Assembly: GCA_039978835.1 (NCBI GenBank)
Contig: JBDWAQ010000005.1
Location: 586,631-650,630, forward strand
Source of the DNA: Parasphingorhabdus sp.
GTDB lineage: Bacteria > Pseudomonadota > Alphaproteobacteria > Sphingomonadales > Sphingomonadaceae
Reading direction: 5' to 3'
DNA length: 64,000 nucleotides
Positions 9,286 through 63,783 of the stretch are shown here, piece after piece. The notes below the pieces were generated by a model. It did no database searches, was not told the DNA's origin, and saw nothing but the letters and a program-made list of their open reading frames with translations. The stretch's first letter is position 1. The number at the start of each line of letters is the position of its first letter. Both the position numbers and the translations under genes were made by a program.

Positions 9286-9324
9286 GCCCCTGTGGTGGAA
9301 TTGGTAGACGCGCTCGACTCAAAA
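9286..9324 (+). pseudogene. 5' half of host tRNA-Leu(CAA), ending at the anticodon loop (attL)
   Basis: GCCCCTGTGGTGGAATTGGTAGACGCGCTCGACTCAAAA is followed by non-tRNA sequence (GGTTGAGTATAT). It pairs exactly with the 3' half at 63730-63783. Confidence 0.92.
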
Positions 9325-9408
9325 GGTTGAGTATATAAGGAGGAACGAGACTAAAGCATTTCCGAATTACATTTAAAAACAATGACTTAGTGAAGCATGC
9401 AGGGCGAT

Positions 9409-9440
9409 TTGACATATACGCGCCCGACAATGTGTAGATC
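9409..9440 (+). promoter_or_regulatory. Possible island-borne promoter for the internal tRNA-Leu
   Basis: Consensus TTGACA at 9409-9414. The -10 candidate (GTAGAT, about 9434-9439) has non-ideal spacing. Confidence 0.3.
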
Positions 9441-9477
9441 GAAGTTGGGCGCGGCTAAGGTGGTCACGTCATGATGT

Positions 9478-9562
9478 GCGGGCGTGGTGGAATTGGTAGA
9501 CGCGCGGGATTCAAAATCCCGTTCCGCAAGGAGTGTGGGTTCGATTCCCACCGCCCGCACCA
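9478..9562 (+). tRNA. Complete island-borne tRNA-Leu(CAA), copy A
   Basis: 85 nt. Acceptor GCGGGCG/CGCCCGC, anticodon stem CGGGA/TCCCG with loop TTCAAAA (CAA at 9512-9514), variable arm TCC-GCAA-GGA, T arm GTGGG-TTCGATT-CCCAC, encoded ACCA. Confidence 0.95.
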
Positions 9563-10211
9563 TCAAATAGCGATAATATTCGGAAATGTTTAGCTAGTGC
9601 CTATTAGAATCGACTTTTCGGGTGGTTTTTGTCGATTATTTTTGCCATCAAAATTGGTCGATAGAATGGCAGAGCATCGATAATTGACTTTATCTATTTT
9701 TTGGAAGGCTTCTGGGCCGATTGTAGACTGTCCGGTTTGTACCTCGACATCAGACAAATCGACATTCGACTTACGCCCCAGTTGCCGTCGTTTCCGCTGA
9801 TTTTTCATCTACCTGAAAGCTGTCTTAGTTATCGTCAGTTGATTCAAAAATTGTAATAAAGATGAAGTTACATGATAATAAATAATTAACTGACCAAATA
9901 TTGATGAAATATTTTGATTGAAATAAGTTCCCAATGAGATGGAATTAGAATATCTTACAATATGACGATTATTTGTCTTGTGTTTAAGATTTTCCGTACT
10001 TGCTTGGGGATGTTCAAAGAAGAGTTGCTCGATACCGACTGGGCGTCAGGCCCGTTTCGCGCTTAAATGCCTTGATGAAATGAGCTTGGCTAGAAAACCC
10101 GCTTTTGAACGCGACGTTTACAAAGGTCTGTCGTTTGTCAGCAATTAGTTTTTTGGCCAAGTTCAATTTCTGAGCAGTAACATACTGGTGGGGAGTTACG
10201 CCGACATTTTT

Positions 10212-10411
10212 TTAAAGGTTCTCGAGCAGAAAGGCGTTTTAGTCAGGCTGAGCTTGCAGAGATGGTGGGGGTTTCCGGAAACTCGATCAATTCTATTGAG
10301 AATGGAAAATTCGATCCTTCATTGCCGCTGCCATTTCGTATCGCTCATGTTTTTGATCATTCGGTCGAGGAGGCGTTCGAAAAGGTCGAAGCAGTAGCAG
10401 AGATCAAGTAA
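10212..10411 (+). pseudogene. Frameshifted XRE/Cro-type HTH regulator
   Basis: Restoring one base at about 10223 (CTC-GA-GCA) gives LKVL(R)AERRFSQAELAEMVGVSGNSINSIENGKFDPSLPLPFRIAHVF...*, a typical small XRE protein. No clear start codon. Confidence 0.7.
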
Positions 10412-10428
10412 ACGCGGTCGGAACGGCC

Positions 10429-10637
10429 GTCCACAACTGGGGTCGAAAGCCGCCACTACCGCTTCAGTGAGTTTGCGTCTGCTTTCGCCGTCTTCAGTTC
10501 CCAAAGCAGACCGTCGGTTTACCACCCCATAAGCTGACGCTGTAATGCAAACTAGCGCGTTCTGGTAGCTGACTGGCTGTTAGCGTGATTTAGCTGCTGA
10601 GAGCGGCATTTCTTCCAACGACCCAATTGCGGACATT
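10429..10637. repeat. Cluster of short dispersed-repeat units
   Basis: GTCCACAACTGGGGTCGAAAGCCGCC (10429-10454) resembles 59630-59654. ACCCAATTGCGGACATT (10621-10637) is the exact reverse complement of 58971-58987. Confidence 0.6.
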
Positions 10638-10722
10638 CAAGGTCGATGGCCGCGGCAGCTCCTGCCAACTATAGCGGGCTGCATCTAATATTTGATCACG
10701 TATTGAGTGCAGCCCGATCAAG

Positions 10723-10980
10723 TCAGTCAAGACGTAAGCGGCCAGCGGCGAGCGCCTCAGTCAGTTCTGCTAGCGTTACAAACCCGTCTCTATTTACGTC
10801 TGTCACCCTGAATTCGGCAAGGGTTGCCTTGCATCTAAGGGCTTCTTTCTCTGTGATTTTTCCATCTTTGGAACGATCACACTGTTCCATCAAATGTGGC
10901 GCTGCGTTCGTCTGCGACGGCGTCGCACACCCCGTTAGTGGGGCGAGGATTACGACTAAAATGAGAGAATTTCTAATCAT
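10723..10980 (-). CDS. Small EF-hand lipoprotein
   Basis: Lipobox LTGC and two EF-hand-like loops, DRSKDGKITEKE and DVNRDGFVTLAE. Confidence 0.7.
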   Translation of the reverse strand: MIRNSLILVVILAPLTGCATPSQTNAAPHLMEQCDRSKDGKITEKEALRCKATLAEFRVTDVNRDGFVTLAELTEALAAGRLRLD

Positions 10981-11026
10981 TATCGATACTCCGGCAATGA
11001 AGATACTGTGGGCAATAGGATAGTCA

Positions 11027-11065
11027 CCGCGACAGGGCTGGAGCGGTCCCCCGGCCCTGTCGCGG
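11027..11065. terminator. GC-rich hairpin after the beta-barrel gene
   Basis: 12-bp stem CCGCGACAGGGC/GCCCTGTCGCGG just 3' of the minus-strand stop at 11073. No clear U-tract. Confidence 0.55.
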
Positions 11066-11072
11066 CTATCGG

Positions 11073-11672
11073 CTAGAAACGAACGAGCGCACCGACCGAT
11101 ATTTTGCTCTGCTTGAAATCCTGATCGAAATTGGTGCGATTATATTCCGCCCGGACGGCGAGATTTTCGGACAAGGCGAGCTCAATGCCGCCGCCATAAG
11201 TGAAGCCCTTCTGCGTGATCGTGTTTGAGAAATTGCCGGCGGCTTGGTCCACCACGGATTCCTCAACCCTCAGCCAGCGGTAACCGCCACGCCCATAGAC
11301 AACGAGACCATTTGTGGGCGTAATGCCTGCACGCGCCGTTGCGTCATATGAAAGGCCCGGATCAGCTTTGTAGCGGCCGGGCGCAGTTAGAGACAGCTGG
11401 TCAACCGTACGGCCACCCAGGCCTACGCCGACCTCGGCACCGACCAGTAGGAAGTTACCGAGGACCAAATCATAACCGGCATGAACGCGTCCGCCGAAGC
11501 CTTTGCGCGAAGCCTCAGTGGTGCTTGTCGGTTGACTGACCTCGTTGGAATCTCGTGTTGCATCAATACCGAAATGCAACCCTTGCAGTTGGTTTTCAGA
11601 ATTGTCCTGCGCGGATACCGCAGCTGGCGCGGCCAGCAGTGCAGTTGCCAAGAAGATAAAGGGGGATTTCAT
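11073..11672 (-). CDS. Outer-membrane beta-barrel (porin-family, OmpA-like) protein
   Basis: Signal peptide, alternating amphipathic strands, GGGIE...VRAEY motif and C-terminal Phe. Confidence 0.8.
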   Translation of the reverse strand: MKSPFIFLATALLAAPAAVSAQDNSENQLQGLHFGIDATRDSNEVSQPTSTTEASRKGFGGRVHAGYDLVLGNFLLVGAEVGVGLGGRTVDQLSLTAPGRYKADPGLSYDATARAGITPTNGLVVYGRGGYRWLRVEESVVDQAAGNFSNTITQKGFTYGGGIELALSENLAVRAEYNRTNFDQDFKQSKISVGALVRF

Positions 11673-11747
11673 TGTCTACTCCATTTTCATATGGCGGCGG
11701 GCTGCCAACCATAGCGGAGTAACTGAACCTGGATCGTCGAGTTTGTG

Positions 11748-12962
11748 TCAGTTCTTTGTGGAGAATTGTTGGAGATCGGATGAGTGCGGCAGTCTCATTT
11801 CGACGACCGTTCCGCCTTCGTCGGCATTCCTGATAAAGACGTGTCCGCGGTGCGCTTCCACTATGGTTCTTACGACCGCAAGCCCCAATCCGGACCCACC
11901 AGTATTTCGATTTCGCGATGCTTCGCCCCGCCAGAAGCGATCAAAGGCTAGGGTTTCTGCGCCAGACGGCAGGCCCGGTCCTGAGTCGGTTATCTGTAGA
12001 ACCGCATCGTCGCCCGCAACGAAGGTCGCAATTTTCAACATGCCGCTATCGGGCGCGTAGCGCACGACGTTCGATAATACCGCTATGATAACTTGCCGCA
12101 CCCGCATCCCGTCGGCAGCCAATGGCACCGCGTCCAGCTTCAACGACGCCTCCAGATTTGCTTTTTCCAGATCAGGACCGACTACAGCCAAAACTCGGTG
12201 TACTTCTTCAGCCAAATCGATCTCTTCCAGCGTGAGCACCAGCCGCTGCGAGTTAGCCAAGCTAAGCGTTTGCAAATCGTCAACAAGCCGACCCAGCCCT
12301 TCGACTTGCAGAATAAGTCCGGTAATTTCGCCGGGCTCGAGGTCAAAAACCCCGTCCGCAATCCCATGCAAACGTCCCCTAAGGACGGTAAGCGGCGTTC
12401 GGAGTTCATGCGCGATCGAAGCAGTGCTTTCGGCAAGCTCTCTTTCCGCCCTCTCTAGTGAAGCCGCCATCGCGTTGAAATCATCGGCCAATCGAGATTC
12501 TTCGGACGATGTAAATTTTGACCTTCTGGCCCGAACGGAAAGGTCACCTTCGGAGATGCTTCGCGCTGCGGCGCCAACATTGCTCAACCCGCGGCCTAAA
12601 CGGCCGACAGCAAGATATCCGATGCCATAGGTTGCCGCAGCCGCGACAAGTACCATTGTGTAGAGAATTAAGTCGGATTGATCATCGAGCTCTGCAACAA
12701 TGGTTTCCAGTTCCGGACTTAACTTTTCCCATTCTTCTGGGGTTGGAATTTGCCCATCGTTCGATTTCTGCAGGATTTCCCTCACGTCGGGCGGCAGTTC
12801 TGAAACGCCCTGAACAAATGCGTAGTTGCCCCAGGCATCCGTCGCTACAATGATCAGCATGGCATTACCGACCATCGCAACCGCGAACAACAGTGATATC
12901 TGCCGAGTAAGGGGCCAGCGCCGCAATCTGGCTGCTAGCGCACTTAAAATGCCGCCGCTCAT
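11748..12962 (-). CDS. Sensor histidine kinase, BaeS/AdeS-like
   Basis: Two TM segments, HAMP domain, H-box IAHELRTPL, DSGPG, FDRFWRGEASR and GSGLGLAVV. Confidence 0.92.
   Translation of the reverse strand: MSGGILSALAARLRRWPLTRQISLLFAVAMVGNAMLIIVATDAWGNYAFVQGVSELPPDVREILQKSNDGQIPTPEEWEKLSPELETIVAELDDQSDLILYTMVLVAAAATYGIGYLAVGRLGRGLSNVGAAARSISEGDLSVRARRSKFTSSEESRLADDFNAMAASLERAERELAESTASIAHELRTPLTVLRGRLHGIADGVFDLEPGEITGLILQVEGLGRLVDDLQTLSLANSQRLVLTLEEIDLAEEVHRVLAVVGPDLEKANLEASLKLDAVPLAADGMRVRQVIIAVLSNVVRYAPDSGMLKIATFVAGDDAVLQITDSGPGLPSGAETLAFDRFWRGEASRNRNTGGSGLGLAVVRTIVEAHRGHVFIRNADEGGTVVEMRLPHSSDLQQFSTKN
11759..11775 (-). promoter_or_regulatory. Candidate OmpR-family response-regulator box
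   Basis: On the minus strand TCTCCA-N5-TCTCCA (11-bp period), about 90 nt upstream of the beta-barrel gene and inside the kinase 3' end. Confidence 0.45.
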
Positions 12963-13651
12963 GCCGCGATCAGCCGATATCCAACACCGCGAACGACAAC
13001 GCAGTGGCCGGGCGCCCCGACCGTGGTTAGTTTGCGTCGCAAATTGCTGACATGGCTATCGACAGTGCGCTCCAATGCGTCGCTTTCGGGCATACAGACA
13101 TCGACCAGCTCTGCGCGGCTGAAAACCCGGCGCGGCGCTCGGGCCATGTGTTCCAGAATTCGGTATTCCGTCAGGGTCAGTTCTAATGTTTTGTGTTCGT
13201 TCCCGATCGCTACACGGGCGATGTAACATTGGGTGTCGATCTCGATGGAGCCGACGCGGATCATCGTCGAATCTTCAGCTCCGCCACTGGTGCGTCGCAA
13301 AACCGCCTTTACCCGTGCGACGACCTCCATCGGATTGAATGGCTTGACAACATAATCATCTGCCCCAACGTGGAGCGCGGATAACTTATCCAAATCGTCC
13401 GCGCGTGCTGTCGCCATAATAACCGGCGTACTGCCCCGGCGCCTCAATTCCGCAAGAACCGAAAATCCATCACGGATCGGCATTTGCACATCCAGCAACA
13501 CCAGATCGGGTTTTAACAGTTGATGGTGCATCAAAGCTGTATGACCGTCGTTCGCAGTCACCGTGCGAAACCCATCACGCTCCAGATATGACACGAGAAT
13601 CGTGGCAATCTCTTGCTCATCTTCTGCCACCAATATTAGAGCATTTTCCAC
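12959..13651 (-). CDS. OmpR-family response regulator, BaeR/AdeR-like
   Basis: AEDE, LLDVQMP, GADDYVVKPF and winged helix ending VRGVGYRL. GTG start at 13651 follows GAGAAAGG. Confidence 0.92.
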   Translation of the reverse strand: MENALILVAEDEQEIATILVSYLERDGFRTVTANDGHTALMHHQLLKPDLVLLDVQMPIRDGFSVLAELRRRGSTPVIMATARADDLDKLSALHVGADDYVVKPFNPMEVVARVKAVLRRTSGGAEDSTMIRVGSIEIDTQCYIARVAIGNEHKTLELTLTEYRILEHMARAPRRVFSRAELVDVCMPESDALERTVDSHVSNLRRKLTTVGAPGHCVVVRGVGYRLIAA

Positions 13652-13849
13652 GACCGGAGCCTTTCTCACTTGGGTCCACGACACTCGGTAATCTATAGCG
13701 ACGCAAGTGTCGAGATCGCGTGGAGTAATGGCCGAGATTTATCGAGATCGGAATTTACCGCGAGTTTCGCACCGCCTTAATGCAATCTCCACTCTCTCTT
13801 CGCACACTCGCCCTTTTGTCAGTCGCAATCATGAAGAGGGCGTGCCGAT

Positions 13850-14944
13850 ATGCAGAAACTTGGACTCTATATTTGCACCGGTGCGGTAGCATTTCTTTTA
13901 GCGTTCTCTGCACCTGCATCGGCTCAACACACAGAGTCAGACGATTGGCCTAGGGCATCAAGTGCGGAGCTATCTGTCCTGACATATAACGTGCGCGGAT
14001 TGCCTTGGCCGATTGCCAAGAACCGTTCACGCGCACTCAGAAAAATCGCAGCAACGCTTCGTCAAATGCGCGAAAATGATGAGCACCCGCAAATTGTATT
14101 GCTGCAAGAAGCATTTACTGGCTCTGCGCGCGCGATTGGCAGGTTAGCTGGGTATAAATACGTAATCTCTGGACCTTCGTCGAAGGAGAAAAACAATGCT
14201 ATTGCCAGCCCTGCCGACAGAGAGTTTTTGACGTCGGCACAATGGGACAAGGGCGAGGGATTGGGAAAAATCTTTGGCAGCGGCTTGCAGATCCTGTCTG
14301 ACTATCCGGTCACCGAAATCCATAAATTGGCGTTTCCAAAATATGCGTGCGCAGGCTTTGATTGTCTCGCAAACAAGGGTGTTGTGCTGGTCACCGTGGA
14401 CATTCCGCGGCTCGGCTCGACGGTTCAGATCGCCAATGCCCACCTGAATGCAAAACGCAGCTCAAGAGTAAGCGAAGAACGTCGGAAGTTTGCTGTCCAG
14501 CGTCAGATCGAGGCTGCTCACGCGTTCATTGGGCAACATCTCGGGCTAGGCAGCCCGCTCATTTTCGGTGGTGACTTTAACGTCGGCAACGTCGCTTGGC
14601 GCAGGGAACTGCTGTTTGGGATGGATTGGCCGATCAAGCTCAATGCAGATGCCCTGCGAAGGCTTGCGGCCAACACAGAGTTAGAAGCCGACGCACAGGA
14701 GGCGTTGGACCGTGCGACCGATTGGCAGTTTTTCCATTCGGGCAAATCACTACAGATTATCCCTCAGCGCGTATCAATCCCTTTCGGGCGCGACGTCGAT
14801 GGCAATATGCTTTCAGATCATGTCGGTTATACGATTATATACAAGCTCACTAATATTGGAACTGAGAGTCCAGAGGTCGCGGTTCCGACTCGAGAAAGCG
14901 GACTTACTAGACCGGCATCTACGAGATTTGCTGGGACTCGATAA
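13850..14944 (+). CDS. Secreted endonuclease/exonuclease/phosphatase-family protein (sphingomyelinase-like)
   Basis: Signal peptide, TYNV, LQEAF, GSGL, NAHL, GGDFN and SDH catalytic motifs. Confidence 0.85.
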   Translation: MQKLGLYICTGAVAFLLAFSAPASAQHTESDDWPRASSAELSVLTYNVRGLPWPIAKNRSRALRKIAATLRQMRENDEHPQIVLLQEAFTGSARAIGRLAGYKYVISGPSSKEKNNAIASPADREFLTSAQWDKGEGLGKIFGSGLQILSDYPVTEIHKLAFPKYACAGFDCLANKGVVLVTVDIPRLGSTVQIANAHLNAKRSSRVSEERRKFAVQRQIEAAHAFIGQHLGLGSPLIFGGDFNVGNVAWRRELLFGMDWPIKLNADALRRLAANTELEADAQEALDRATDWQFFHSGKSLQIIPQRVSIPFGRDVDGNMLSDHVGYTIIYKLTNIGTESPEVAVPTRESGLTRPASTRFAGTR

Positions 14945-15453
14945 ACCGAACTGGGTCTGGTTCAATAATGTAAAAATGAACTTGCGGCCGGATGCCCGAC
15001 TTCCCTAGGCTTGACGAGCAAAGCACTTTCACGCGGCGTTTCCTTCTTATTACTGGGCGATCACCGTCCCCGCTCTACAATGCTCAATCCGAATGAATGT
15101 CGGTTTCCGCCCATTACCTGCCGTTGCAATGGGATCAGTAGAATGGCAGCCTCCTACCCCAATGTCTGTCGTTTCGCTGCCGCTCGAAGTGGGCCGATTG
15201 CACACTGTCTGCTGCGAGAGGCAGTGAAGCCATAAACTGCCATTCATCTAATACCACATTTGCAGACGTTCATTCCACGAAGATAAAGCAGTCGATATCG
15301 CATCGACGCGGACTTTCCGCATTCGCTGGTGACCTAGTCCAAATTGGCCCGGACCGCCGCAATCATCTGTTCACGCCCACTTTCATATTCGCCAAGGAAA
15401 GTATCAGGCGCATTGGATTGAATCTGTCTGATGCATCAGGCGTGGCCGGCGGC

Positions 15454-15647
15454 TTACAGTCGGTTCCAGCTTGCATCCGAAGCGCCGTAGAAGTACTCGC
15501 CGATCTTGCCGACGGTCTGGACACTGCCGTGGTCTGGACCGGCTTGGCCTCAATTCCCATGGTTTCGAGATCGTGGACCGTATCGGCACTGATGCCGAGT
15601 TCGACCTTGATCTGGTGGTTATTGTCACGCTTAAAACATCTCACCAT
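15454..15647 (-). pseudogene. Possible decayed C-terminal fragment of a gamma-glutamyltransferase-like gene
   Basis: HQIKVELGISADTVHDLETMG, then after a frameshift at about 15540 GPDHGSVQTVGKIGEYFYGASD. This resembles the GGT C-terminus; by-eye similarity only. Confidence 0.35.
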
Positions 15648-16071
15648 TCAATAGATTGGGCGCAGACTTTCAAGTATCATCTTGATGGTATTTTTGGCGT
15701 GTTCGACCTTTATCGCATCGTCGAGGAGTGGGATTATCTGATCAGGGCTCTCCCCAGCGGGACCTATACAGCACTCTGTCCTGGGCATCTAGAGCTGCGG
15801 TCCTGAGTGTGCGGTGTTCTTTTATTGGCGCGGCCCGCACTCTGGATCAGCGACAACGGATTGAAGTGCCGCCGGGCAGGCGACAGATCCCGCCTAAACC
15901 AGCGGCGCGGGAAACCAAATAGCAGGGACCTAGTTTGCAACAACAATGAATACTTTAGAACGAGCAAGGAAATCTCGGAAGAGCTTCAAAACCATATGGA
16001 ATTTAGTGTACCGTCAATGTCGTCAATCTAAGTTTGTCACAAAAAGCAACTACAATGATGATCAGTACAAT

Positions 16072-16722
16072 TTAAATTTCATAATGGGCAGAGGTTTTGG
16101 TTGCCACGTTTTCTGTTGAGACCCCGGGAGCCAGCTCTACTAATTTGAACGAGTTTTGGTGGTCGGCGCGTTGCATGACGCATAAATCACTTATGATCAT
16201 ATCCACGACATTTTGCCCGGTCAGTGGCAGCGTGCACTCGGGAATGAGTTTTGGACTGCCGTCCTTGGAACAGTGATCCATGACTACGATGATTTTTTTC
16301 ACACCGGCGACCAGGTCCATGGCGCCGCCCATCCCTTTGACCATCTTGCCCGGTATCATCCAATTGGCAATATCTCCGTTTTCGGCAACCTGCATCGCGC
16401 CCAGCACGGCGAGATCAATATGACCACCGCGGATCATCGCAAAACTGTCGCCGCTCGAGAAGAAGCTCGATGTTGGTAGTGCACTGACGGTTTGTTTCCC
16501 GGCGTTGATCAAGTCCGGGTCTTCCTCGCCCTCAAATGGGAACGGCCCGATACCGAGCATCCCATTTTCCGATTGCAGAGTTACCTCGACTCCATCGGGA
16601 ATATGATTGGCCACCAGCGTCGGAATACCAATACCCAGATTGACATAAAAACCATCCTGCAATTCCTGCGCGGCCCGCGCCGCCATTTCATCGCGTGTCC
16701 AACCTTTTTGCAATACAGTCAT
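16072..16722 (-). CDS. 3-oxoacid CoA-transferase subunit B (ScoB/PcaJ-like)
   Basis: [15 protein letters not shown] (catalytic Glu) and GMGGAMDLV motifs. Confidence 0.92.
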
Positions 16723-16974
16723 CCATCGTCCTTCCCGACCATTTGTACAGGGTCTTTCAATGGCACATGAATAGCCCAGCGGTCCTGTGCAGGATAGATC
16801 GACACAGCCAAATATCGTTCAGATCATGCGCTCAAAAAACTAATCCGAAGTCGCAGGATAACGGGGTGAAATGCAGCTCCTTTAGCGAATCTAATCCGGC
16901 ATAAGAGAAAATCTAAGATGCAATATGGGTTGAGTCCGATCATTGTGACGAGGTGTATTTTGGGTGATGGGATA

Positions 16975-18090: not shown

Positions 18091-18104
18091 CAGACAAGGA
18101 GAAG

Positions 18105-18392
18105 ATGATGTTGTTCATGGTAGAGATGGTAGTGAATCCACCGCTGGATATCGACAAGGATGAATTTGAAGCGTTGAAAGCGACGGAAAAGGCGCGCGCG
18201 GAAGAACTGCAGAATAGTGGAAAATGGCGACATTTATGGCGGGTGACAGGGCAATATGCCAATGTCAGCATTTTCGATGTTGCCGACGCGCAGGAACTAC
18301 ATGACATTATGATGAGCCTGCCGCTTTATCCCTTCATGGATGTGCACGTCACATCACTTTGCCAGCATCCATCCGCAATTGAACAGATTTAA
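18105..18392 (+). CDS. catC: Muconolactone delta-isomerase
   Basis: MLFMVEM...GKWRHLWRVTGQYANVSIFDV...LPLYPFM...HPS, located between catB and catA. Confidence 0.93.
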   Translation: MMLFMVEMVVNPPLDIDKDEFEALKATEKARAEELQNSGKWRHLWRVTGQYANVSIFDVADAQELHDIMMSLPLYPFMDVHVTSLCQHPSAIEQI

Positions 18393-18406
18393 TCAGGAGA
18401 GCAATC

Positions 18407-25317: not shown

Positions 25318-25348
25318 CAGTCGATCCTTTGTCTGTTATGCTGTTCGC

Positions 25349-26494: not shown

Positions 26495-26507
26495 ATTCTC
26501 TCTCTCC

Positions 26508-29108: not shown

Positions 29109-29109
29109 A

Positions 29110-45048: not shown

Positions 45049-45075
45049 CCTACAATGTTGTGGAGCGGTTGAACA

Positions 45076-46284: not shown

Positions 46285-46398
46285 AATGTGTACCATCTCA
46301 GTAACAGGCTGTGACTCAATTGACTAAAGCAACCGGGGGTCGCTTTACAAACTGGGGTTAGTCATTCAAAAGATTAGCCTAACTTATGTGGTAGAAAA

Positions 46399-48775: not shown

Positions 48776-48792
48776 GATATTCCTCTATCCGC

Positions 48793-49920: not shown

Positions 49921-49923
49921 CGA

Positions 49924-52930: not shown

Positions 52931-53051
52931 CGACCACCTTGTCTATAAATTGTGCAAAAACACTAGTTTTCATTCTTCTTCTGGTCAAGACATTGTCCGC
53001 GCTTAGGCTATCATCGTGCACAATATGATCGCTGAAGAATTGGAATTGAAT

Positions 53052-53999: not shown

Positions 54000-54033
54000 G
54001 CGCCTTTTCCAATAGTAAACTGAGCGACAGACT

Positions 54034-54969: not shown

Positions 54970-54970
54970 G

Positions 54971-56227: not shown

Positions 56228-56263
56228 CCGCATCTTACAACGGCCAACAAAAAGGAACTAGCA

Positions 56264-57700
56264 ATGTCAGTTTTTAGAAACTTTATCGACGGTGATTGGA
56301 TACTGTCGGAATCGACAGTCAAGAACATCAATCCAGCTGACACTAATGATATCATTGGTGAATATGCGCAGGCCGATGCTGATCAAGTGGAACAGGCGAT
56401 TGCTGCGGCGAATGACGCCTTTACGGGCTGGTCGCGCGGTAGCATTCAGCAGCGTTTTGATTGTCTAGACGCGATCGGCACTGAAATTCTGGCTCGGAAG
56501 GCGGAGCTGGGCGAGCTACTGTCGAGAGAAGAAGGCAAGAGCCTAGCCGAAGGCGTCGGTGAGGCTGCGCGTGCTGGCCAAATATTCAAGTTCTTTGCTG
56601 GCGAAACACTTAGGCTACAGGGCGAATTGGTTGCGTCGGTCAGGCCGGGTGTCGATGTTGAAATGACCAGAGAGGCTGTTGGCTCGATTGGCATTATAAC
56701 GCCTTGGAACTTCCCCATTGCCATTCCGGCTTGGAAGATCGCACCGGCGCTCGCCTATGGTAACACCGTAATATTCAAACCGGCCAATCTCGTTCCCGGC
56801 AGTGCTTGGGCGATAGCGGAGATTATTGCCCGTTCGGGTTTACCAAAGGGCGTGTTTAACTTGATCATGGGATCGGGCAGCTCGGTTGGAGGCGCTCTTC
56901 TCAACGATAAGCGCGTAAAGGCGATCAGCTTCACTGGTTCGGTGCAGACAGGCGGTATTGTCGCTGCTGCATGCAGTAAACGGAACGCAAAATATCAGTT
57001 GGAAATGGGCGGTAAGAATCCGCTTATCGTTCTTGCCGATGCAGATATTGATAATGCGGTAAACTGCGCATTGAACGGCGCATTCTTCTCGACCGGTCAA
57101 CGTTGCACCGCATCGTCGCGGCTTATCGTCGAAGCTTCCGTCCACGATGCGTTTGTTGATGCGTTAAAGCTGGCCATTGAAGATTTGACAGTGGGGGATC
57201 CACGCAAAGATGGCACCCAGATCGGTCCGGTAATTGATGAAAAACAGCTGAAGCAGAATCTGGAATATGTTGAAATCGGTAAGGCAGAGGGAGCTACCCT
57301 GCTTACCGGTGGGAGCCGATTGGATCGCGAGACGCCCGGTTTTTATCAGGCACCCGCACTGTTTGTTGATACTCATAACGATATGCGCATCAACCGTGAG
57401 GAAGTGTTTGGTCCTGTCGCTACTGTCATCAAGGTGGCGGATTTTGACGAGGCAATTGCGATTGCTAACGATACAGAATTCGGCCTTTCTGCAGGCATTT
57501 GCACCACATCTTTGAGATTGGCGGGTCGGTTTAAGCGTGAGAGCCAAGCGGGCATGGTGATGGTGAATTTGCCGACTGCTGGTGTCGACTATCACGTACC
57601 ATTTGGCGGTACAAAAGGGTCCAGCTTTGGATCCCGCGAACAGGGAAGTTATGCGCGCGAATTTTATACGACGGTCAAAACCGCCTATATTTGCCCCTGA
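56264..57700 (+). CDS. Aldehyde dehydrogenase, probable 2-oxoglutarate semialdehyde dehydrogenase
   Basis: TPWNFP, LEMGGKNP, STGQRCTASSR and EEVFGP motifs; hydroxyproline operon context. Confidence 0.83.
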   Translation: MSVFRNFIDGDWILSESTVKNINPADTNDIIGEYAQADADQVEQAIAAANDAFTGWSRGSIQQRFDCLDAIGTEILARKAELGELLSREEGKSLAEGVGEAARAGQIFKFFAGETLRLQGELVASVRPGVDVEMTREAVGSIGIITPWNFPIAIPAWKIAPALAYGNTVIFKPANLVPGSAWAIAEIIARSGLPKGVFNLIMGSGSSVGGALLNDKRVKAISFTGSVQTGGIVAAACSKRNAKYQLEMGGKNPLIVLADADIDNAVNCALNGAFFSTGQRCTASSRLIVEASVHDAFVDALKLAIEDLTVGDPRKDGTQIGPVIDEKQLKQNLEYVEIGKAEGATLLTGGSRLDRETPGFYQAPALFVDTHNDMRINREEVFGPVATVIKVADFDEAIAIANDTEFGLSAGICTTSLRLAGRFKRESQAGMVMVNLPTAGVDYHVPFGGTKGSSFGSREQGSYAREFYTTVKTAYICP

Positions 57701-57776
57701 CATTTTTGGCATGGTACCGGCTGTTGGACTACTTCACGGACTTATCTGGTCTCCAATAGGAATTTTTGCTGTGACT

Positions 57777-58934
57777 ATGCCGTCACTTCCACCCTTTGTC
57801 GACGATATCGAGAGGGGACAGAGGATAAACAATCTTCGGGTCGCTATGGCGGGCACCGGTCAAGATGTGGTTATTTTGACTCCCAGCGCCAATATGCGGT
57901 ATTTCCTCGGTCAGACTTTTTATGAAAGAGAACGGTTTCACGGAGCGATCATTACAAGTGATCGTGCGATATTCATCTGTCCGAAATTTGAAGATACGGC
58001 GGTAACTGCCAGGCTTGCGGTGCCAATGGAGATGGCATTTTGGGAAGAGCATGAGAACCCCTATGCGCTTGTTGCAGCCATACTGGCTGACCGTGGCGTC
58101 AAGCTGTGTTCGTTAGATACCAATTGTTCGTATGGACACGCCTCGCAAATCTTTGATGTTCTTACGTCATTGAATCAGCCGGTTCGCTATGGCTCGGCAA
58201 ACTCGGTCATCTCACCGTTGAGAACTTGAAAGTCCGATGTCGAACTGGCACTCATGTCGGCGGCTAAACAACTCACTTTGGGTATCCACCGGACAATCTT
58301 CAGCTGGATACAACCGGGCATGAAAGCCAGTGTGGTGATTGCAGAGATCGATCGCCTACACCGCGATGGCGGTGCGGATAACGGTAGCTCTTTTTGTGCC
58401 GTTCAATTTGGCGAAGCGACGTCGCATCCTCACGGCGTCCCCGGTGATCCTGTGTTGCAGAATGGCGACCTTATCTTGATCGACACCGGCTGCACAATTG
58501 ATGGCTATAATTCTGACATCACCCGGACATACGCCCTGAACAAGGTGGATGATGAAATCGAGGATCTTTGGCAAGTCGAGAAGGAAGCGCAGGAGGCCGC
58601 GTTCGATCTGGCAGCGCCCGGCATCGCCTGCGAAGATGTAGACAAGGCTGCGCGCGATGTCCTGATTAGCCATGGATTGGGCCCGGACTATGATCTGCCG
58701 GGCCTACCTCATCGCACGGGCCATAGCATTGGTCTGGAGATTCATGAACAACCCTATCTGGTAAAAGGTGACCAAACGTCGCTGGCCGAGGGCACGTGCT
58801 TTTCCAATGAACCTATGATCGTGGTTTCGGAGAGGTTTGGTATCCGGTTGGAGGATCATTTTTACGTCACACCCACAGGTTCAGCGTGGTTCACTAAGCC
58901 GCAACACGGCCTGTACCAGCCATTTGAAGAATAA
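57777..58934 (+). pseudogene. M24 Xaa-Pro peptidase interrupted by one in-frame TGA (58227-58229)
   Basis: ORFs 57582-58229 and 58254-58934 are in the same frame (SPLRT*KSDVELALMS). Metal ligands IDTG, SDITRT, HRTGH, NEP and RLED are intact. Confidence 0.8.
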
Positions 58935-58970
58935 TGTTTTCAACGGAGGAGGTCGCGACGTGTGGGAACT

Positions 58971-58987
58971 AATGTCCGCAATTGGGT
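58971..58987 (+). repeat. Dispersed repeat AATGTCCGCAATTGGGT
   Basis: 17/17 match to the reverse complement of 10621-10637 and 16/17 match to 63319-63335. Confidence 0.65.
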
Positions 58988-59044
58988 TGAATCATTGCCG
59001 ATATCTCTTGCGGGCGGGATAAACGGGGCTGGCTGCAAAGGTAC

Positions 59045-59129
59045 GCGGGCGTGGCGGAATTGGTAAATGCGCGGGATTCAAAATCCCGTGCCGCAAGGAG
59101 TGTGGGTTCGATTCCCACTGCCCGCACCA
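59045..59129 (+). tRNA. Second complete island-borne tRNA-Leu(CAA), copy B
   Basis: 85 nt, 80/85 identical to copy A, same CGGGA-TTCAAAA-TCCCG anticodon arm and ACCA end. It has a G-U pair in the acceptor stem and a mismatch in the variable arm. Confidence 0.88.
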
Positions 59130-59163
59130 TCAAAACTGGCAGACAGTTTCGTAGGCATTCGCG

Positions 59164-59595
59164 CGGAACATCGGCGATTTGGTTAGTGGTCCAGAAATCA
59201 GAACTCGAGCGACAATCACGCAGCGTAAGACAGGTCGGCCTTTCCAGTTTGAGATCGCGGCAGACGCCAGAGCAAGCCTGTTCGCCTGGCTGGAACTCAG
59301 AGGTGGTGACGTCGAGGACTTTGTGTTTCCAAGCCGTGTGGATCACGCACGGCATCTCAGCACTCGGCAATATGCAAGGCTGGTCGATGAGTGGGTTGAA
59401 GCGATTGGCCTGCGACCTGGGGAATATGGCACGCATTCGCTGCGCCGAACTAAAGCTTCAATCATCTACAAAGCCACAGGCAACATCCGGGCAATCCAAA
59501 TATTGCTCGGGCACTCCAAGATCGAGAATACCGTGCGATACCTTGGCGTCGATATTGAAGACGCTCTCACGCTTGCCGAGAAGACTGAGATCTGA
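59164..59595 (+). pseudogene. 5'-truncated tyrosine recombinase (phage integrase family)
   Basis: IGDLVSGPEIRTRA...QRKTGRP, then HSLRRTKA and LLGHSKIENTVRY (H-x-x-R, H, Y). An in-frame TAG at 59152 lies upstream, and the N-terminal part with the first catalytic Arg is absent. Confidence 0.8.
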
Positions 59596-59939
59596 CCGAT
59601 GTTGGATGCCAGCCTTGTCCGGGCTGGCTTCCGCAACTGGGGGTGGAAGCTGACGATGGCGTTCAGTCCGAAGTGTAGCGGCTCCATTCCAATGGAGAAA
59701 CGTGACTTCGAGGATGTAGGACGAGCTTAAGTTCACACAGTTTTGATTAGGCTTGTCGATATTCCGACGGCAATACGCCTGTCCAGCGAACGAATGCGCG
59801 TCTAAAATTTGCAGATTCGCTTACTTGCAATTCGGGAGCTCGAGGGAGCATTTTTTTCTCTTCTTTGTGGTGAAAATGTTGGTCAGAGGATCAACAGCCC
59901 ATAGAATGACCGTCGATCCTCTCAATCCGTTGCGGAGCG

Positions 59940-60824
59940 TTAAGCGCTACTCAGCTCTGTCAGCATCGTTTTGAGACGCGTTTGCGCGTCAGACGATAGC
60001 GGCAGAAGCGGCCGACGAGGCGCTCCGACATCTGCGCGTTGAAGAGCAAGGCCTGCTTTGACAGCAGCGGCAAGACCCGATGTCACAATGAATTCGAGAA
60101 ACTCGAATTGCTTGTAAAATAGACTGCGCGCTTGATCATCATTGCCCGCCTGAATGGCAGTGAACAACCGACCCGGCAGATCCCCGATGAGGCACGGTGC
60201 AGCGGTGCACCAACCGCTTGCGCCTGCATTGATCGCTTCGAGCGCCATGTGGTTGCACCCATTGAAGAACGGGACTTCACCACCCGATAGCTTATAGATC
60301 TTGTGCATGCGTTGAATGTCGCCAGTGCTTTCCTTGATCATAGTGGCATTGTCGATTTCATCGACCATGCCCAGCATGAATTCGGGTGACATATCGACGC
60401 CGCAAGTCGCCGGATTGTTGTAAATCATGATCGGCAGTGGGGTCGCGTTCGACACGGTCTGATAGTGCTGGAATATCTCTTCTTCGCTCAGCTTGTAGTA
60501 TGAGAAAGGAGACAGCATGATCGCGTCGGCTCCGATGGAATGCGCATGTTTGACGCGTTTCACCGCTTGCTCCGTCGTCAGTTCGGCAACTCCAATAACG
60601 ACCGGGACCTTGCCAGCCACATAGGTCACCGTTTTCTCAGCAACCGCATTCCATTCCGCTTCGCTCAGATAGGCCGCTTCGCCAGCGCTACCCAGCGCTG
60701 CGATGGCATCCACTTTGGCAGCGAGCAAGGTATCGATCACCGTTTCAAGCTTGCCAAGATCGACATTCGTATTGTCATCGGTGAACGGGGTGACGGGGTA
60801 TGCAATAATTCCTGAAAGGTTCAT
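59940..60824 (-). CDS. DHDPS/N-acetylneuraminate lyase-family protein
   Basis: AYPVTPF, LGSAGE, IYNNPATCG and IKESTGD (Schiff-base Lys) motifs. Confidence 0.85.
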   Translation of the reverse strand: MNLSGIIAYPVTPFTDDNTNVDLGKLETVIDTLLAAKVDAIAALGSAGEAAYLSEAEWNAVAEKTVTYVAGKVPVVIGVAELTTEQAVKRVKHAHSIGADAIMLSPFSYYKLSEEEIFQHYQTVSNATPLPIMIYNNPATCGVDMSPEFMLGMVDEIDNATMIKESTGDIQRMHKIYKLSGGEVPFFNGCNHMALEAINAGASGWCTAAPCLIGDLPGRLFTAIQAGNDDQARSLFYKQFEFLEFIVTSGLAAAVKAGLALQRADVGAPRRPLLPLSSDAQTRLKTMLTELSSA

Positions 60825-60835
60825 ATTCTTAGTCC

Positions 60836-61612
60836 TTAGATACAATCTGTGTGTGTTTTGAGCGCTTGGCGCACGAAGTAGGCGAAATTCACTTTGTTGC
60901 GTTTGTCGGTTGAGACCCAGTCATGCGCTTCTTGAGCGAGTTCATGAGAGACAGGCTGGATCTGCCCAGCAGCCATGGCGAGCAGTTGAAGCTTTGCGGC
61001 GCGCTCTATCAGAACGGCCAGGTTGCATGCTTCTTCGATGGTCTTGCCGGTGACGAGTTGACCGTGATGAGCCAAGAACAGCGCGCGATTTTTGCCCAGT
61101 GCTTCTGAGATCAACTCGCCTTCCTCATTGCCAACCGGCACGCCGGGCCATTCCGCCAAGAAGGAACAATCATTGTAGAGCGCGCAGGTGTCCATTTGAG
61201 AGATCATCAAAGGAACCTTCAGCATTGAAAGCGCGGCAATGTTCGTGGGGTGTGTATGGATGATGCAATTCACATCCGGATGCTCTTTGTAGACCCAGGT
61301 GTGAAAGCGATTGGCAGGGTTCGCCATGCCTTTGCCGTCCAGCGGATTGAGATCTTCATCAACCTCAATCAAATTGTCCGCGGTGATCTCGTCAAAGCCA
61401 AGGCCAAAGCGCTGGGTGAGGAAAGTTTTGGGCTGTTCGCTGCGACAGGTGATCTGTCCGGCAAGGCCGGAATCATGGCCTTTGTCGAACAGAATTCGGC
61501 AGGTGATGGCCAGTTTCTGGCGATCGGTTAAAGCGACATCCTGAAGAAGATCGCTCATAGCGCTTTGAGCGCTATGCATCAGATCATCCTTGGTTGCGGT
61601 TGCTGTTTTCAT
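60836..61612 (-). CDS. Class II aldolase/adducin-family protein
   Basis: AGQIT, NRFHTWVY, IIHTHP and LAHHG zinc ligands. Confidence 0.85.
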   Translation of the reverse strand: MKTATATKDDLMHSAQSAMSDLLQDVALTDRQKLAITCRILFDKGHDSGLAGQITCRSEQPKTFLTQRFGLGFDEITADNLIEVDEDLNPLDGKGMANPANRFHTWVYKEHPDVNCIIHTHPTNIAALSMLKVPLMISQMDTCALYNDCSFLAEWPGVPVGNEEGELISEALGKNRALFLAHHGQLVTGKTIEEACNLAVLIERAAKLQLLAMAAGQIQPVSHELAQEAHDWVSTDKRNKVNFAYFVRQALKTHTDCI

Positions 61613-61730
61613 TTCTAATTTCCTTAGGGATTCGGAGAGTTTTTATTGACAATGATTATCAACTAGAGATAAACAGGCCCAATAGTAAGGCCCAGTTTGG
61701 CAAATATGACTGGTCCAGATTGGAGTGGCG

Positions 61731-63200
61731 ATGTCGAGAGCTTGGGACGTCCAATTTTCGCTGGAGAGAATGGCAGGCAAAACGCTGCATGCCAGCCTGC
61801 TCGAGCAGCTCATATCTGACATAACAAGCGGGCGACTGCTGCCGGGGAGTATGCTTCCAGGAACACGGGCATTGGCCCAGCAGCTAGGCATCAACCGCAA
61901 GACAGTGCAGCAAGTGTATGAAGAGCTTGAGGCGCAAGGCTGGCTGGAAACGCGCAGCCGTTCGGGCACTTTTGTATCACAAAGTCTGCCTGAGAATGGC
62001 CTGACACAAAGCGACGCAGCTCTGGTTGAAACGGCCACGAGCGCCAAAATGCCCTCGCAGCTCTTGGAGGGTTTGTATAACGAAGCCTTATCAAGCTTCC
62101 AGCATGCCAATATGGTGAATGACGGTACGCCGGACCAGCGCAATATCCCCTATGAACTTCTTGCACGCACATACCGCCGCGTTTGCATGGGCATGAGGCA
62201 AGGCTTTGAACTCGGCTATGGTGACCCCAAAGGCACGCATGGCTTTCGCAAGTCCGTCTGCACAATGTTAAACAGTGATCGGTTCATGAATTGCGATCTG
62301 GATCAGGTGTGCATTGTACGCGGAAGCCAGATGGGCATTTACCTGACTGCAAAGGTCCTAGACCCGCAAGCCGGGGCGATCGTGATGGAGGAGCTCTCCT
62401 ATCTGCCCGCCAAAGCCGCGTTTCAATCGAACGGTTTTGAAGTGATTGATTGCCGTCTCGACGAGAACGGGCTTGAGATCGACCATTTGCGTAACATTCT
62501 TGAACGGCAACCGATTGCAGGGATCTATCTAACTCCGCATCACCAATATCCGACGACCGTATGCCTTCCAATGGACCGGCGCTTGGAGCTGCTCGATTTG
62601 TCGCGAACATACGGCTTTGCAGTGATCGAGGATGATTACGATCACGAGTTTCACTATGCGGCTAACCCGATTCCACCACTCGCAAGCCTGCCGAACTCGG
62701 AAAATGTCATCCATATCGGCTCAATGTCCAAGGTGTTTTCACCAGGATTGAGGCTCGGGTATGTTGCTACCAGTGCACAGTTCATAGAACGTATCGCACA
62801 GGAAATCATTGTGGTTGACCGTCAGGGTAATACGCTGAGCGAACTGGTTCTTTCCGACCTTATGGAAAGCGGCGAGGTGAAGCGTCATATTCGCAAGACG
62901 CGCAAGCTTTACGAGGCGCGGCGTGATTTTGCTGTGGTAGAGTTTCGGCGGGTGTTTGGCGATCAGGTATCATTCACAACGCCGAGCGGTGGTCTGGCGA
63001 TCTGGGCTGACATCTCAAAGCTGACCCATGGATTTTCGTCAGTCGATTTCGGCAGCCGCGATCTGACGTTGAACACATTCTACACCTCCGATGAAACACA
63101 GCCCACGCATGTGCGATTTGGCTTTGGAGGTATCAACGAGCGGGAGATTACCCGTGCAATCGAATTGTTGTCAGAAGCTATTAATCGGAAGGGAGCCTAA
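61731..63200 (+). CDS. MocR/GabR-family regulator (GntR HTH plus PLP aminotransferase domain)
   Basis: LPGTRALAQQLGINRKTV HTH, TPHHQYPT, EDDYDHEF and SMSKVFSPGLRLGY motifs. Confidence 0.9.
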   Translation: MSRAWDVQFSLERMAGKTLHASLLEQLISDITSGRLLPGSMLPGTRALAQQLGINRKTVQQVYEELEAQGWLETRSRSGTFVSQSLPENGLTQSDAALVETATSAKMPSQLLEGLYNEALSSFQHANMVNDGTPDQRNIPYELLARTYRRVCMGMRQGFELGYGDPKGTHGFRKSVCTMLNSDRFMNCDLDQVCIVRGSQMGIYLTAKVLDPQAGAIVMEELSYLPAKAAFQSNGFEVIDCRLDENGLEIDHLRNILERQPIAGIYLTPHHQYPTTVCLPMDRRLELLDLSRTYGFAVIEDDYDHEFHYAANPIPPLASLPNSENVIHIGSMSKVFSPGLRLGYVATSAQFIERIAQEIIVVDRQGNTLSELVLSDLMESGEVKRHIRKTRKLYEARRDFAVVEFRRVFGDQVSFTTPSGGLAIWADISKLTHGFSSVDFGSRDLTLNTFYTSDETQPTHVRFGFGGINEREITRAIELLSEAINRKGA

Positions 63201-63318
63201 GCAAAGAAGGTCTAGTGTAACGCAACCGTTGTTATCGCGGATACATTTGTACGCTGACCCAGTAATAGGTCCCGCAACGGAGCGGAAAACGTATTAGTGC
63301 AACTAAAGGTTACATTTC

Positions 63319-63410
63319 AATGTCCGCAAGTGGGTCGGAAGTCGACTGTCAGCTTTCTGAAGTGCAGGAGCCTAAACAAGACAGTCCGCAAACGGCCCAG
63401 AATCAGCCAT
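63319..63410 (+). repeat. Dispersed-repeat units near the right island end
   Basis: AATGTCCGCAAGTGGGTCGGAAGTCGAC (from 63319) and a second GTCCGCAA unit at about 63385. Confidence 0.55.
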
Positions 63411-63650
63411 AATGGATGCAGCGATTGCAGGTGCTTGCCTAAATTTTGTTTGCGTTACCTATGCCCCGCTTAGACTAGCTGGAGCAGAATAATTGCTGCA
63501 GAACGATCAATTTTATAAAACGCTTGATCAGGTTAATGAGGCAAATTGGGATCAACGATTATATCAATTTGGGTCAAGACAATGGCTACTTTGCTTACTT
63601 TGATTCTTAATGGGAGGGGAGGGTATTAAACCGCATCAGCGAGCACAATA

Positions 63651-63670
63651 CTTACACAAAACCTTACACA
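63651..63670. promoter_or_regulatory. Candidate integrase arm-type sites
   Basis: Tandem direct repeat CTTACACA at 63651-63658 and 63663-63670, 60-80 nt inside the right att core. Confidence 0.4.
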
Positions 63671-63729
63671 CTTTTCAGTTGTGCAAGATAATATGTTATG
63701 TTATCAAATAGTTACGTTAGTCCCGTCTC

Positions 63730-63783
63730 ACTCAAAATCGAGTTCCGCAAGGAGTGTCCGTTCGAGTCGGACCAGGGGCACCA
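63730..63783 (+). pseudogene. 3' half of host tRNA-Leu(CAA), starting at the anticodon loop (attR)
   Basis: ACTCAAAATCGAGTTCCGCAAGGAGTGTCCGTTCGAGTCGGACCAGGGGCACCA, preceded by non-tRNA sequence (GTTAGTCCCGTCTC). Confidence 0.92.

Follow-up and report, generated by a model that had tools for sequence, protein, structure and literature searches.

Introduction

Textbook tRNA-targeting islands repair the gene they cut. The leuX gene for tRNA-Leu(CAA) is the target of pathogenicity island II in uropathogenic Escherichia coli 536, where excision alters the integrity of the tRNA and regulatory effects have been discussed. For canonical islands, the Islander database paper describes island sequence as restoring the split gene (PMC4383910). 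Another strategy, tRNA-dependent lysogeny, was reported for the actinobacteriophage Fionnbharth and other subcluster K4 phages and for Cluster L phages (Guerrero-Bustamante & Hatfull, mBio 2024, PMC10865867): the core shared by the element attachment site (attP) and the bacterial attachment site (attB) measures about 10 bp, the tRNA is not reconstructed, and a phage tRNA of the same isotype is required for lysogeny. The same study describes secondary sites with few core bases and tRNA-rebuilding relatives such as Boilgate, names the Lactobacillus prophage Lj965 as a further candidate, and asks how widespread the strategy is (PMC10865867). In Sinorhizobium meliloti, two prophages knock out tRNA-Leu(UAG) and bring in its place a tRNA-Leu gene that is about 80% identical to that of the host and closer to tRNAs of other taxa (PMC11476347). 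Here we analyse a 64,000-nucleotide (nt) stretch of Parasphingorhabdus sp. DNA (the window), in which a 54-kb island splits the host tRNA-Leu(CAA) gene and carries two complete tRNA-Leu(CAA) genes of its own.

We propose, with a probability of about 0.78, that the island is a decayed, integrase-less element whose ends were made by a disrupt-and-replace tyrosine integrase belonging to a large alphaproteobacterial family.

The island occupies the anticodon loop of a host tRNA-Leu(CAA) gene

The two halves of the host gene lie at the two ends of the island (Table 1), the 5′ half reading GCCCCTGTGGTGGAATTGGTAGACGCGCTCGACTCAAAA and the 3′ half reading ACTCAAAATCGAGTTCCGCAAGGAGTGTCCGTTCGAGTCGGACCAGGGGCACCA, which begins ACTCAAAATCGAG and ends GGGGCACCA. 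The sole stretch common to both is the 8-nt ACTCAAAA, and fusing the halves through one copy of it yields an 85-nt sequence that ARAGORN calls as tRNA-Leu(CAA), in agreement with the original prediction for this locus, which had placed the split at the anticodon loop. Neither half, taken as it stands, is called as a tRNA by ARAGORN or Rfam, and the island-side neighbours of the halves are not tRNA sequence (GGTTGAGTATATAAGG after the left half, GTTAGTCCCGTCTC before the right half). The host gene is thus not rebuilt at the junction, as had been predicted.

The empty site is present in relatives, the closest named of which, judged by PilD, are Parasphingorhabdus and Sphingorhabdus. Specifically, an intact tRNA-Leu(CAA) gene that matches the joined 85 nt base for base lies directly 3′ of pilD in an uncultured Sphingomonadaceae genome (L004; PilD 83% identical, from a PilD scan using one genome per species), in a Parasphingorhabdus metagenome-assembled genome (L009) and in a JGI metagenome contig (L010). 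The order in L004 is pilD, intact tRNA-Leu(CAA), TonB receptor, tRNA-Thr, and open reading frames (ORFs) sized like those in the right flank of the window (locus L002). The genes of L004 and L009 agree with the window on both sides, with a thiolase gene and pilD on the left, and a TonB receptor, tRNA-Thr, a mechanosensitive (MS) channel, an alcohol dehydrogenase (ADH) and a beta-lactamase-fold gene on the right. Identity between the window and L004 is 265/300 in the left flank and 191/217 in the right flank. Because relatives have the tRNA intact between the same flanking genes, the island, made up of the 54,405 bp from 9325 to 63729 and one copy of the core, was inserted into the anticodon loop of this host gene. 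A search for the empty site in relatives had been suggested with the original prediction, and a lack of any intact tRNA there had been named as refuting it; the intact, identical tRNA at the pilD/TonB-receptor locus of three genomes shows that this refutation does not apply.

The arrangement recurs in independent data. All seven NCBI contigs that encode an identical PilD, JBDWHT010000010.1 of GCA_039975115.1 among them, have the same adjacent genes; six of the seven contigs that encode an identical aldolase, whose gene lies near the right end, have the same neighbours, and the seventh is cut by a contig end near the second island tRNA gene (copy 2, below). Both junctions are also present in independent Logan contigs of run X1. 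Mis-assembly, once named as a possible source of the split, is therefore unlikely. No empty site was found in the seven assemblies with identical flanking proteins, all of which carry the island, and no attB-type contig was found among the Logan contigs of run X1, which hold integrated junctions only and drop rare variants. Exact patterns for the left junction/attP and for the right junction have no match in IMG/VR, and the exact pattern of the left attachment site (attL) has no match in JGI metagenomes.

The gap between pilD and the tRNA contains, at 9231-9256, a conserved hairpin followed by a T-run (GTCGCTAACAGAGCGGC GTTTTGA), which is also found at the matching place in L004 and in L009-L011 (L011 is described below). 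This hairpin is probably the pilD terminator, and it leaves about 30 nt for a host tRNA promoter. What looked like an inverted copy of the tRNA 3′ end in the contig of the right flank proved to belong to the adjacent tRNA-Thr, as its T arm.

The island contains two complete tRNA-Leu(CAA) genes

ARAGORN and Rfam each identify two complete tRNA-Leu(CAA) genes within the island, hereafter copy 1 and copy 2 (Table 1). Copy 1 sits 153 nt inside the left junction. The copies are identical at 80 of 85 positions; copy 1 matches the joined host tRNA at 67 of 85 positions (79%) and copy 2 at 62 of 85. Over 86 nt, copy 1 is a 100% match to the tRNA gene located after the integrase gene of L011. The two copies have unrelated flanking sequences. 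A search for displaced 3′ fragments of either copy, which would mark further integration, found none.

Because two whole genes lie in the island, the cell is presumably not deprived of tRNA-Leu(CAA), and the supply of this tRNA was probably replaced rather than lost. The original prediction had reported neither gene and had left the host without compensation, which no longer holds. Its proposal of an attP free of any tRNA segment stands for the junction itself, where only the core is found, and falls for the element as a whole, in which a complete tRNA-Leu(CAA) gene follows within 153 nt and a second lies further in.

A further 85-nt match to the host tRNA-Leu(CAA), with 10 differences, occurs at 17027-17111 of a 25,185-nt contig of run X1 whose depth equals that of the window genome; it may represent a third tRNA-Leu(CAA)-like gene at another locus.

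Intact relatives combine the split tRNA with a tyrosine integrase and a whole tRNA gene

Homologues of PilD led to locus L011 (ENA ERZ18545485, contig ptg000005l; PilD 69% identical). Here pilD is followed by a host-type 5′ half that ends CTCGACTCAAAA (core ACTCAAAA) and continues into the non-tRNA sequence TTGAGTTCTACCTTAAAAAATTAGCC / TTGAGTTCTACC. The core is followed by 112 nt, the gene for a 428-residue integrase (11055-12341), 62 nt, a complete tRNA-Leu(CAA) gene, and then defence genes. The 428-residue protein contains the motifs GLRPDE, YSLRHTY (LRHTY) and MIERYYGRH (ERYYGRH), which are motifs of tyrosine recombinases. It has no above-threshold match in Pfam or NCBIfam and no match in the PDB by sequence; a fold search with the model of a close homologue (mean predicted local distance difference test score, pLDDT, of 62) returned 29 PDB hits at E <= 1e-3, all 29 being Cre, XerH, IntI (integron integrase) or Tn1549 Int. 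Judged by its catalytic motifs and the predicted fold, the protein is therefore a tyrosine recombinase. At E <= 1e-10, over 6,800 homologues exist (P0126-P0245 among them), a large number of which are 82-95% identical across Sphingomonas, Sphingopyxis, Sphingorhabdus and Blastomonas, and a search with the family integrase found no match in 50,697 phage records.

The cargo of L011 at 12700-20813 is of a defence type and comprises KTSC, a DUF87/HerA-like ATPase beside a SIR2-like gene, DUF2130, AbiEii/AbiEi and a CoiA-like protein.

We then surveyed 80 metagenome loci with flanks, whose integrase relatives are 52-95% identical. A pattern search found an orphan 5′ half of a long-arm tRNA in 45 of the 70 loci with at least 230 nt of upstream DNA. 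Each orphan stops in the anticodon loop, with some 100-145 nt left to the start of the integrase gene. These orphans comprise 27 Leu-CAA, 13 Leu-UAA and a few Ser halves, the last under-counted by the pattern. A whole tRNA gene of the same anticodon (or an intron-split Leu-UAA gene) lies on the same strand within 250 nt after the integrase gene for 33 of the 40 orphans with enough downstream DNA. One member, L091, is of the restoring kind, with an intact tRNA 92 nt before its integrase gene. The acceptor strand of the orphan in Leu(CAA) pairs (mostly GCCCCTG) is unable to pair with the 3′ strand of the downstream tRNA (mostly CGCCCGC), with L017 as the sole exception; the downstream tRNA is thus a separate element-borne gene and not a hybrid of host and element. 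In addition, the tandem arm repeat ACTTACACA is found just upstream of the integrase gene across the family, a strict pattern giving at least two matches in 49 of 75 loci. The same split beside a conserved integrase in dozens of loci agrees with the earlier view that this is a class of element and not an accident.

Several left flanks are found with one identical integrase, P0234, and identical cargo (HipA, PIN, a large Upx-like protein, DUF2958 and ParB). Some are tRNA-Leu(UAA) 5′ halves of different hosts (L093, L097, L098), and others are non-tRNA sites that have only CTTAAAA in common with the target (L092, around 9800-10000; L094, also around 9800-10000, L099, L100). A third type, recovered from three independent samples (L095, around 8170-8370, L096, L101), has its junction over the stop codon (ACT TAA) of a SNF2 helicase, and by its sequence looks like the attP of a circle or of a tandem copy. 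The flanks provide evidence, at the level of sequence, that intact relatives are mobile, that secondary sites are used, and that this happened recently. Since the different left flanks share only the loop, the recombining core is the 7-nt anticodon loop plus about one base, too short to rebuild a tRNA.

The window shares much of this layout. Its orphan 5′ half ends with the 7-nt anticodon loop, as in L011-L015; its same-strand, same-anticodon tRNA has an acceptor unlike that of the orphan and the loop TTCAAAA in place of the target CTCAAAA; and one att arm carries tandem ACTTACACA repeats. The integrase gene that starts about 100-145 nt after the core in the family is missing from the window.

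The left end of the island is decayed and no intact recombinase gene is present

Intact relatives have TTGAGT directly after the core, and the window has a 2-nt insertion (GG) beside the left core relative to them. The distance from core to tRNA is 153 nt in the window versus 1,459 nt in L011. A tblastn search of the window with the L011 integrase gave no match and no remnant, and blastn of the window end regions against all fetched loci found nothing. The segment 9563-10439, in the first kilobase of the island, contains no ORF of at least 80 residues; the AraC-type and XRE-type calls made there (Table 1) come from short-ORF translations judged by eye, without profile scoring.

The right end keeps more of the family layout. 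Its tandem repeats are putative arm-type integrase sites, and their motif CTTACAC has just two occurrences in the 64-kb window, one at 63651 and one at 63663, which places them 67-79 nt to the left of the right core. In a local alignment, the right end and the L011 arm reach a score that was equalled by 1 of 500 shuffles. The tandem ACTTACACA repeats are confined to the right arm, and the left arm, which is their place in relatives, has none.

None of the island ORFs scanned with Pfam is a phage, conjugation or transposition gene, and none encodes a complete recombinase. The recombinase fragment after copy 2 comprises the catalytic domain only, of which it retains the C-terminal two-thirds, gives weak XerC/XerD-type NCBIfam matches, and is not similar to the 428-residue family. 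By its layout, copy 2 with this fragment (59045-59595) looks like the stump of a different tRNA-linked element, for which a displaced tRNA fragment at a far end was not found. With no integrase gene and two extra bases at the left core, excision of the island, and hence a switch that depends on it, appears unlikely.

The cargo identified by Pfam in the island body comprises a two-component system, cat/pca (catechol/protocatechuate) ortho-cleavage genes, a Rieske dioxygenase and amidases, and further a tricorn-like protease, a TonB receptor, a sulfatase, genes for sugar-acid and hydroxyproline catabolism, and several regulators.

Table 1. Coordinates of the tRNA halves, cores, island tRNA genes and other segments in the window
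Feature	Position	Strand	Description
Orphan 5′ half of host tRNA-Leu(CAA)	9286..9324	+	Acceptor, D arm, 5′ strand of anticodon stem and whole 7-nt loop; identical to positions 1-39 of the intact tRNA of L004/L009/L010
Left core ACTCAAAA (attL crossover region)	9317..9324	+	Last stem base and loop CTCAAAA
Spacer	9325..9477	+	Begins GG-TTGAGT; in intact relatives TTGAGT directly after core, then ~110 nt arm and 1.28-kb integrase gene
Replacement tRNA-Leu(CAA), copy 1	9478..9562	+	ARAGORN; Rfam 57.8 bits; acceptor GCGGGCG, loop TTCAAAA
Decayed left-end segment	9563..10439	.	AraC-type C-terminal fragment 10014-10166 (-); frameshifted XRE-type helix-turn-helix (HTH) gene 10188-10411 (+)
Island body	10440..59023	.	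Pfam scans of ORFs; without mobility genes
4.7-kb segment without counterpart in strain B	59024..63700	.	Copy 2, recombinase fragment, DHDPS-like gene, class II aldolase, MocR/GntR regulator, 500 nt non-coding
tRNA-Leu(CAA), copy 2	59045..59129	+	ARAGORN; Rfam 57.9 bits; element type, loop TTCAAAA
Tyrosine recombinase C-terminal fragment	59179..59595	+	PF00589, profile 55-168 of 172, E 8e-16; starts 50 nt after copy 2
Tandem repeats ACTTACACA / CTTACACA	63648..63678	+	12 nt apart; putative arm-type integrase sites of right arm
Right core ACTCAAAA (attR)	63730..63737	+	Shared with left junction
Displaced 3′ half of host tRNA-Leu(CAA)	63730..63783	+	Loop, 3′ strand of anticodon stem, variable arm, T arm, acceptor and CCA; positions 32-85 of the intact tRNA (L004/L009/L010)

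Some further observations concern the island and its source. At 57582-58934, a creatinase/prolidase N-terminal domain (57582-58229) and an M24 peptidase domain (58254-58934) lie on separate ORFs; these domains usually occur within one protein, and the gene may be broken. The ORF at 20790-21968 combines a flavin-reductase domain with a LysR substrate-binding domain and has no LysR HTH, which makes it an unusual fusion or else a pair of genes run together by a frameshift. An inverted repeat that matches at 20 of 22 bases (10619-10640 and 63316-63337) has one arm 1.3 kb in from the left end of the island and the other 0.4 kb in from its right end; it was discarded as being at about chance level in 64 kb (an estimated 0.2 or so expected). 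Runs X1-X4, in which the window is found, come from mixed samples, their contig depths ranging from 20 to more than 800, and PacBio and Illumina runs of 40-60 Gb under the same organism label, the raw-read runs X21-X23 among them, contain no reads of the bacterium. It probably accompanies a larger host organism or a culture.

Replacement tRNA-Leu genes carry an altered target site

In all 22 Leu(CAA) pairs, the loop is CTCAAAA in the orphan and TTCAAAA in the replacement tRNA (C32 to T). The loop pattern is reversed in L083, a more distant element. In the Leu(UAA) replacements, a group I intron interrupts the anticodon loop after CTT, a position that falls precisely within the 7-nt target, and this intron scores above the RF00028 gathering score at 52-53 bits in L024 (3680-3888) and L028 (5361-5569). 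The Ser pairs keep the loop unchanged and differ in the stem only, so protection of the loop is not universal.

An intron-bearing replacement tRNA-Leu(UAA) just after the integrase gene is also found in L022, L029, L037-L039, L042, L044, L047 and L092-L101. Intron-split tRNA-Leu(UAA) genes are overlooked by ARAGORN when it is run without an intron search.

A tentative idea, which we would sooner doubt than adopt, is that the elements shield their own replacement tRNA from their integrase, and so may drive the turnover of tRNA genes. If the altered loop or the intron does block integration, these elements would be a natural example of a tRNA gene guarded against integrating elements by a changed anticodon loop or by an intron. 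Such guarding has so far been argued mostly from archaeal split and intron-containing tRNAs. If the idea is true, serial disruption and replacement would also explain why Sphingomonads have two sequence types of tRNA-Leu(CAA).

A proposed history of the island and its rivals

Intact elements of the family would take the 7-nt anticodon loop as their crossover site, in the long-arm tRNA genes Leu-CAA, Leu-UAA, Ser-UGA or Ser-CGA. Their attP would share with the target only the loop and a base or two, so that the tRNA would not be rebuilt, and a whole tRNA of the same anticodon, encoded after the integrase gene, would be supplied instead. The attP of the island would have read, in order, a right arm with ACTTACACA repeats that ends in GTCTC, the core ACTCAAAA, and TTGAGT leading to the integrase and tRNA genes. 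Recombination with the host anticodon loop would have left the island bordered by the 5′ half on its left and by the 3′ half on its right, with the cut between 9324 and 63730, and copy 1, probably copy 2 too, would have taken over tRNA-Leu(CAA) decoding. The integrase gene would later have been deleted, two bases gained at the left core, the left-end genes decayed and other material accreted, leaving the island fixed and the split permanent. We infer both the order of these decay events and the exact position of strand exchange.

Two relatives bear on this history, the close strain B (runs X5 and X6) and the more distant strain C (run X8), whose structures were inferred from contig pieces and depths. 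The left flank of strain B is about 97.5% identical to the window. Its pilD contig passes the loop and enters a normal 3′ half, of which it covers 22 nt before it stops at the very point from which 31-mers are shared. Over the stretches compared (10440-29000 and 44492-59023), another contig of equal depth, 57,396 nt long, is collinear with the window at about 80-95% identity, depending on the stretch, and it ends in the right junction of the window (63701-63754). This contig omits 59024-63700, with 59023 joined to 63701 through about 180 nt; in addition, 9.45 kb of other sequence replaces 9325-10439 in strain B, and there is no depth over 9668-10334. The unitig of the 3′ half has about twice the single-copy depth, with three entry and two exit contigs. 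This assembly graph suggests that strain B carries tandem tRNA-rebuilding elements. The segment 59024-63700 of the window, which contains copy 2 and the fragment of an unrelated integrase, accreted separately. In strain C, a contig matches 9228-9737 at about 88% and contains the split junction and copy 1 with no integrase gene between them; the integrase-less left module is thus conserved between lineages.

Several of these observations weigh against the history that we propose. The window contains no integrase of the family, and the case for its membership is built on target and core, on a tRNA identical to that of L011, and on the arm repeats. Local alignment of the spacer with the L011 arm and with the L011 spacer between integrase and tRNA scores no better than shuffles, a result that is not significant, and we do not claim the left spacer as a recognisable remnant. 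A promoter scan of 9150-9700 found no sigma-70-like site; copies 1 and 2 are presumed to be expressed and sufficient. The normal 3′ half reached by the pilD contig of strain B, and the right junction that its long contig shares with the window, mean that the island body may have arrived with a tRNA-restoring left end, to which a replace-type left module was joined later. Finally, the island is plainly a mosaic, with 9325-10439 and 59024-63700 missing in strain B, and more than one element or event may have contributed to it.

The strain B data favour a rival history, in which a canonical tRNA-restoring island was damaged after integration: its rebuilt 3′ half and its integrase were removed, and the 5′ half was joined to a nearby replace-type module, by secondary recombination at the crossover site or by tandem integration followed by deletion. 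The doubled, branching 3′ half of strain B is what tandem restoring elements would give, the body at 10440-59023 is there with an identical right junction, and L091 shows that a restoring member exists in the family. We nevertheless regard this history as unlikely. At the left junction of the window, the break falls precisely on the family core and TTGAGT comes next, as it does in L011-L014. Copy 1, at a distance of 153 nt, has the same sequence as the tRNA of the intact L011 module, and strain C keeps the same junction and tRNA at about 88% identity, which speaks against a recent accident. Moreover, the junction would still have been made by a replace-type attP, which alters the history and not the mechanism. 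A canonical restoring island without such damage was rejected, since the left junction continues into GGTTGAGTATATAAGG, which is not tRNA, although the displaced fragment at 63730-63783 does fit.

The disrupt-and-replace history also has to be set against readings without replacement. Uncompensated disruption, as in the original prediction of an excision-controlled switch, would leave the cell without tRNA-Leu(CAA) while the island is integrated and return it on excision; the host gene is truly split, and precise excision would restore it. We consider such a switch highly improbable, because the island itself encodes two complete tRNA-Leu(CAA) genes, which would make excision nearly inconsequential, has no intact recombinase, and shows a 2-nt insertion at its left core and broken genes at its left end, while run X1 yields no attB-type contig and all seven assemblies with identical flanking proteins retain the island. 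An excision-regulated interrupted gene of the skin or nifD element type was likewise rejected, the element having no recombinase and encoding the same tRNA species twice. Insertion of a transposon, with ACTCAAAA as an 8-bp target-site duplication, would account for the direct repeat that borders the insert, but the insert has no transposase, insertion sequence or terminal inverted repeats, and the same 7-8-nt loop is the junction beside a tyrosine integrase in dozens of independent loci, which argues for site-specific recombination and gives the transposon reading almost no chance.

Discussion

Our analysis of genomes and metagenomes suggests that disruption and replacement of tRNA genes is common in Alphaproteobacteria and occurs in non-phage islands. 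The principle itself is already published (PMC10865867, PMC11476347), and the class of element as such is not new. What is new is a non-phage alphaproteobacterial island family and its replacement tRNAs with an altered target; full-text literature searches found no description of a non-phage integrase-tRNA family in Alphaproteobacteria with metabolic, defence or integrative and conjugative element (ICE)-like cargo and altered-target replacement tRNAs. Experimental demonstration that an element cuts a tRNA gene and brings a spare dates from 2024 only, and from actinobacteriophages only (PMC10865867).

Practical consequences may follow for annotation. Island finders that look for a regenerated tRNA and a displaced fragment may miss such islands or misplace their boundaries, orphan tRNA halves may escape annotation, and 'extra' tRNA genes beside integrases may be the only working copy in the cell. 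The window would represent an end state of the process, in which, after loss of the integrase, a foreign tRNA gene stands in for that of the host.

The polarity of the arrangement is the reverse of that at leuX in E. coli 536, where the tRNA is intact while the island is integrated, deletion truncates it, and there is no replacement tRNA. Canonical anticodon-loop islands, as in the sublocation classes of Williams (2002) and the Islander database (PMC4383910), have in common with the present family a tyrosine integrase, a crossover in the loop and a displaced 3′ fragment at the far end; the difference is that here only the core is supplied at the junction. The Sinorhizobium elements have a similar layout, with an alphaproteobacterial host, a junction in the middle of a tRNA-Leu gene, and an element tRNA about 80% identical to that of the host (79% for copy 1). 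Those elements differ in being prophages, known from two strains, and the likeness is one of layout.

The actinobacteriophages share with the present system an attB that overlaps a tRNA gene, a core too short to rebuild it (8 nt here), and an element-borne tRNA of the same isotype; the tyrosine integrase of the phages has a counterpart in intact relatives with the same junction and none in the window. Secondary sites with few core bases, and relatives that rebuild the tRNA, are common to both systems as well. In contrast to the phages, the element described here is an island with metabolic cargo (defence or ICE-like cargo in relatives) in an alphaproteobacterial host and is known from sequence alone. 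Its copy in the window has no integrase, and its family is distinguished by a fixed module of integrase and tRNA genes and by a replacement tRNA in which the target is altered.

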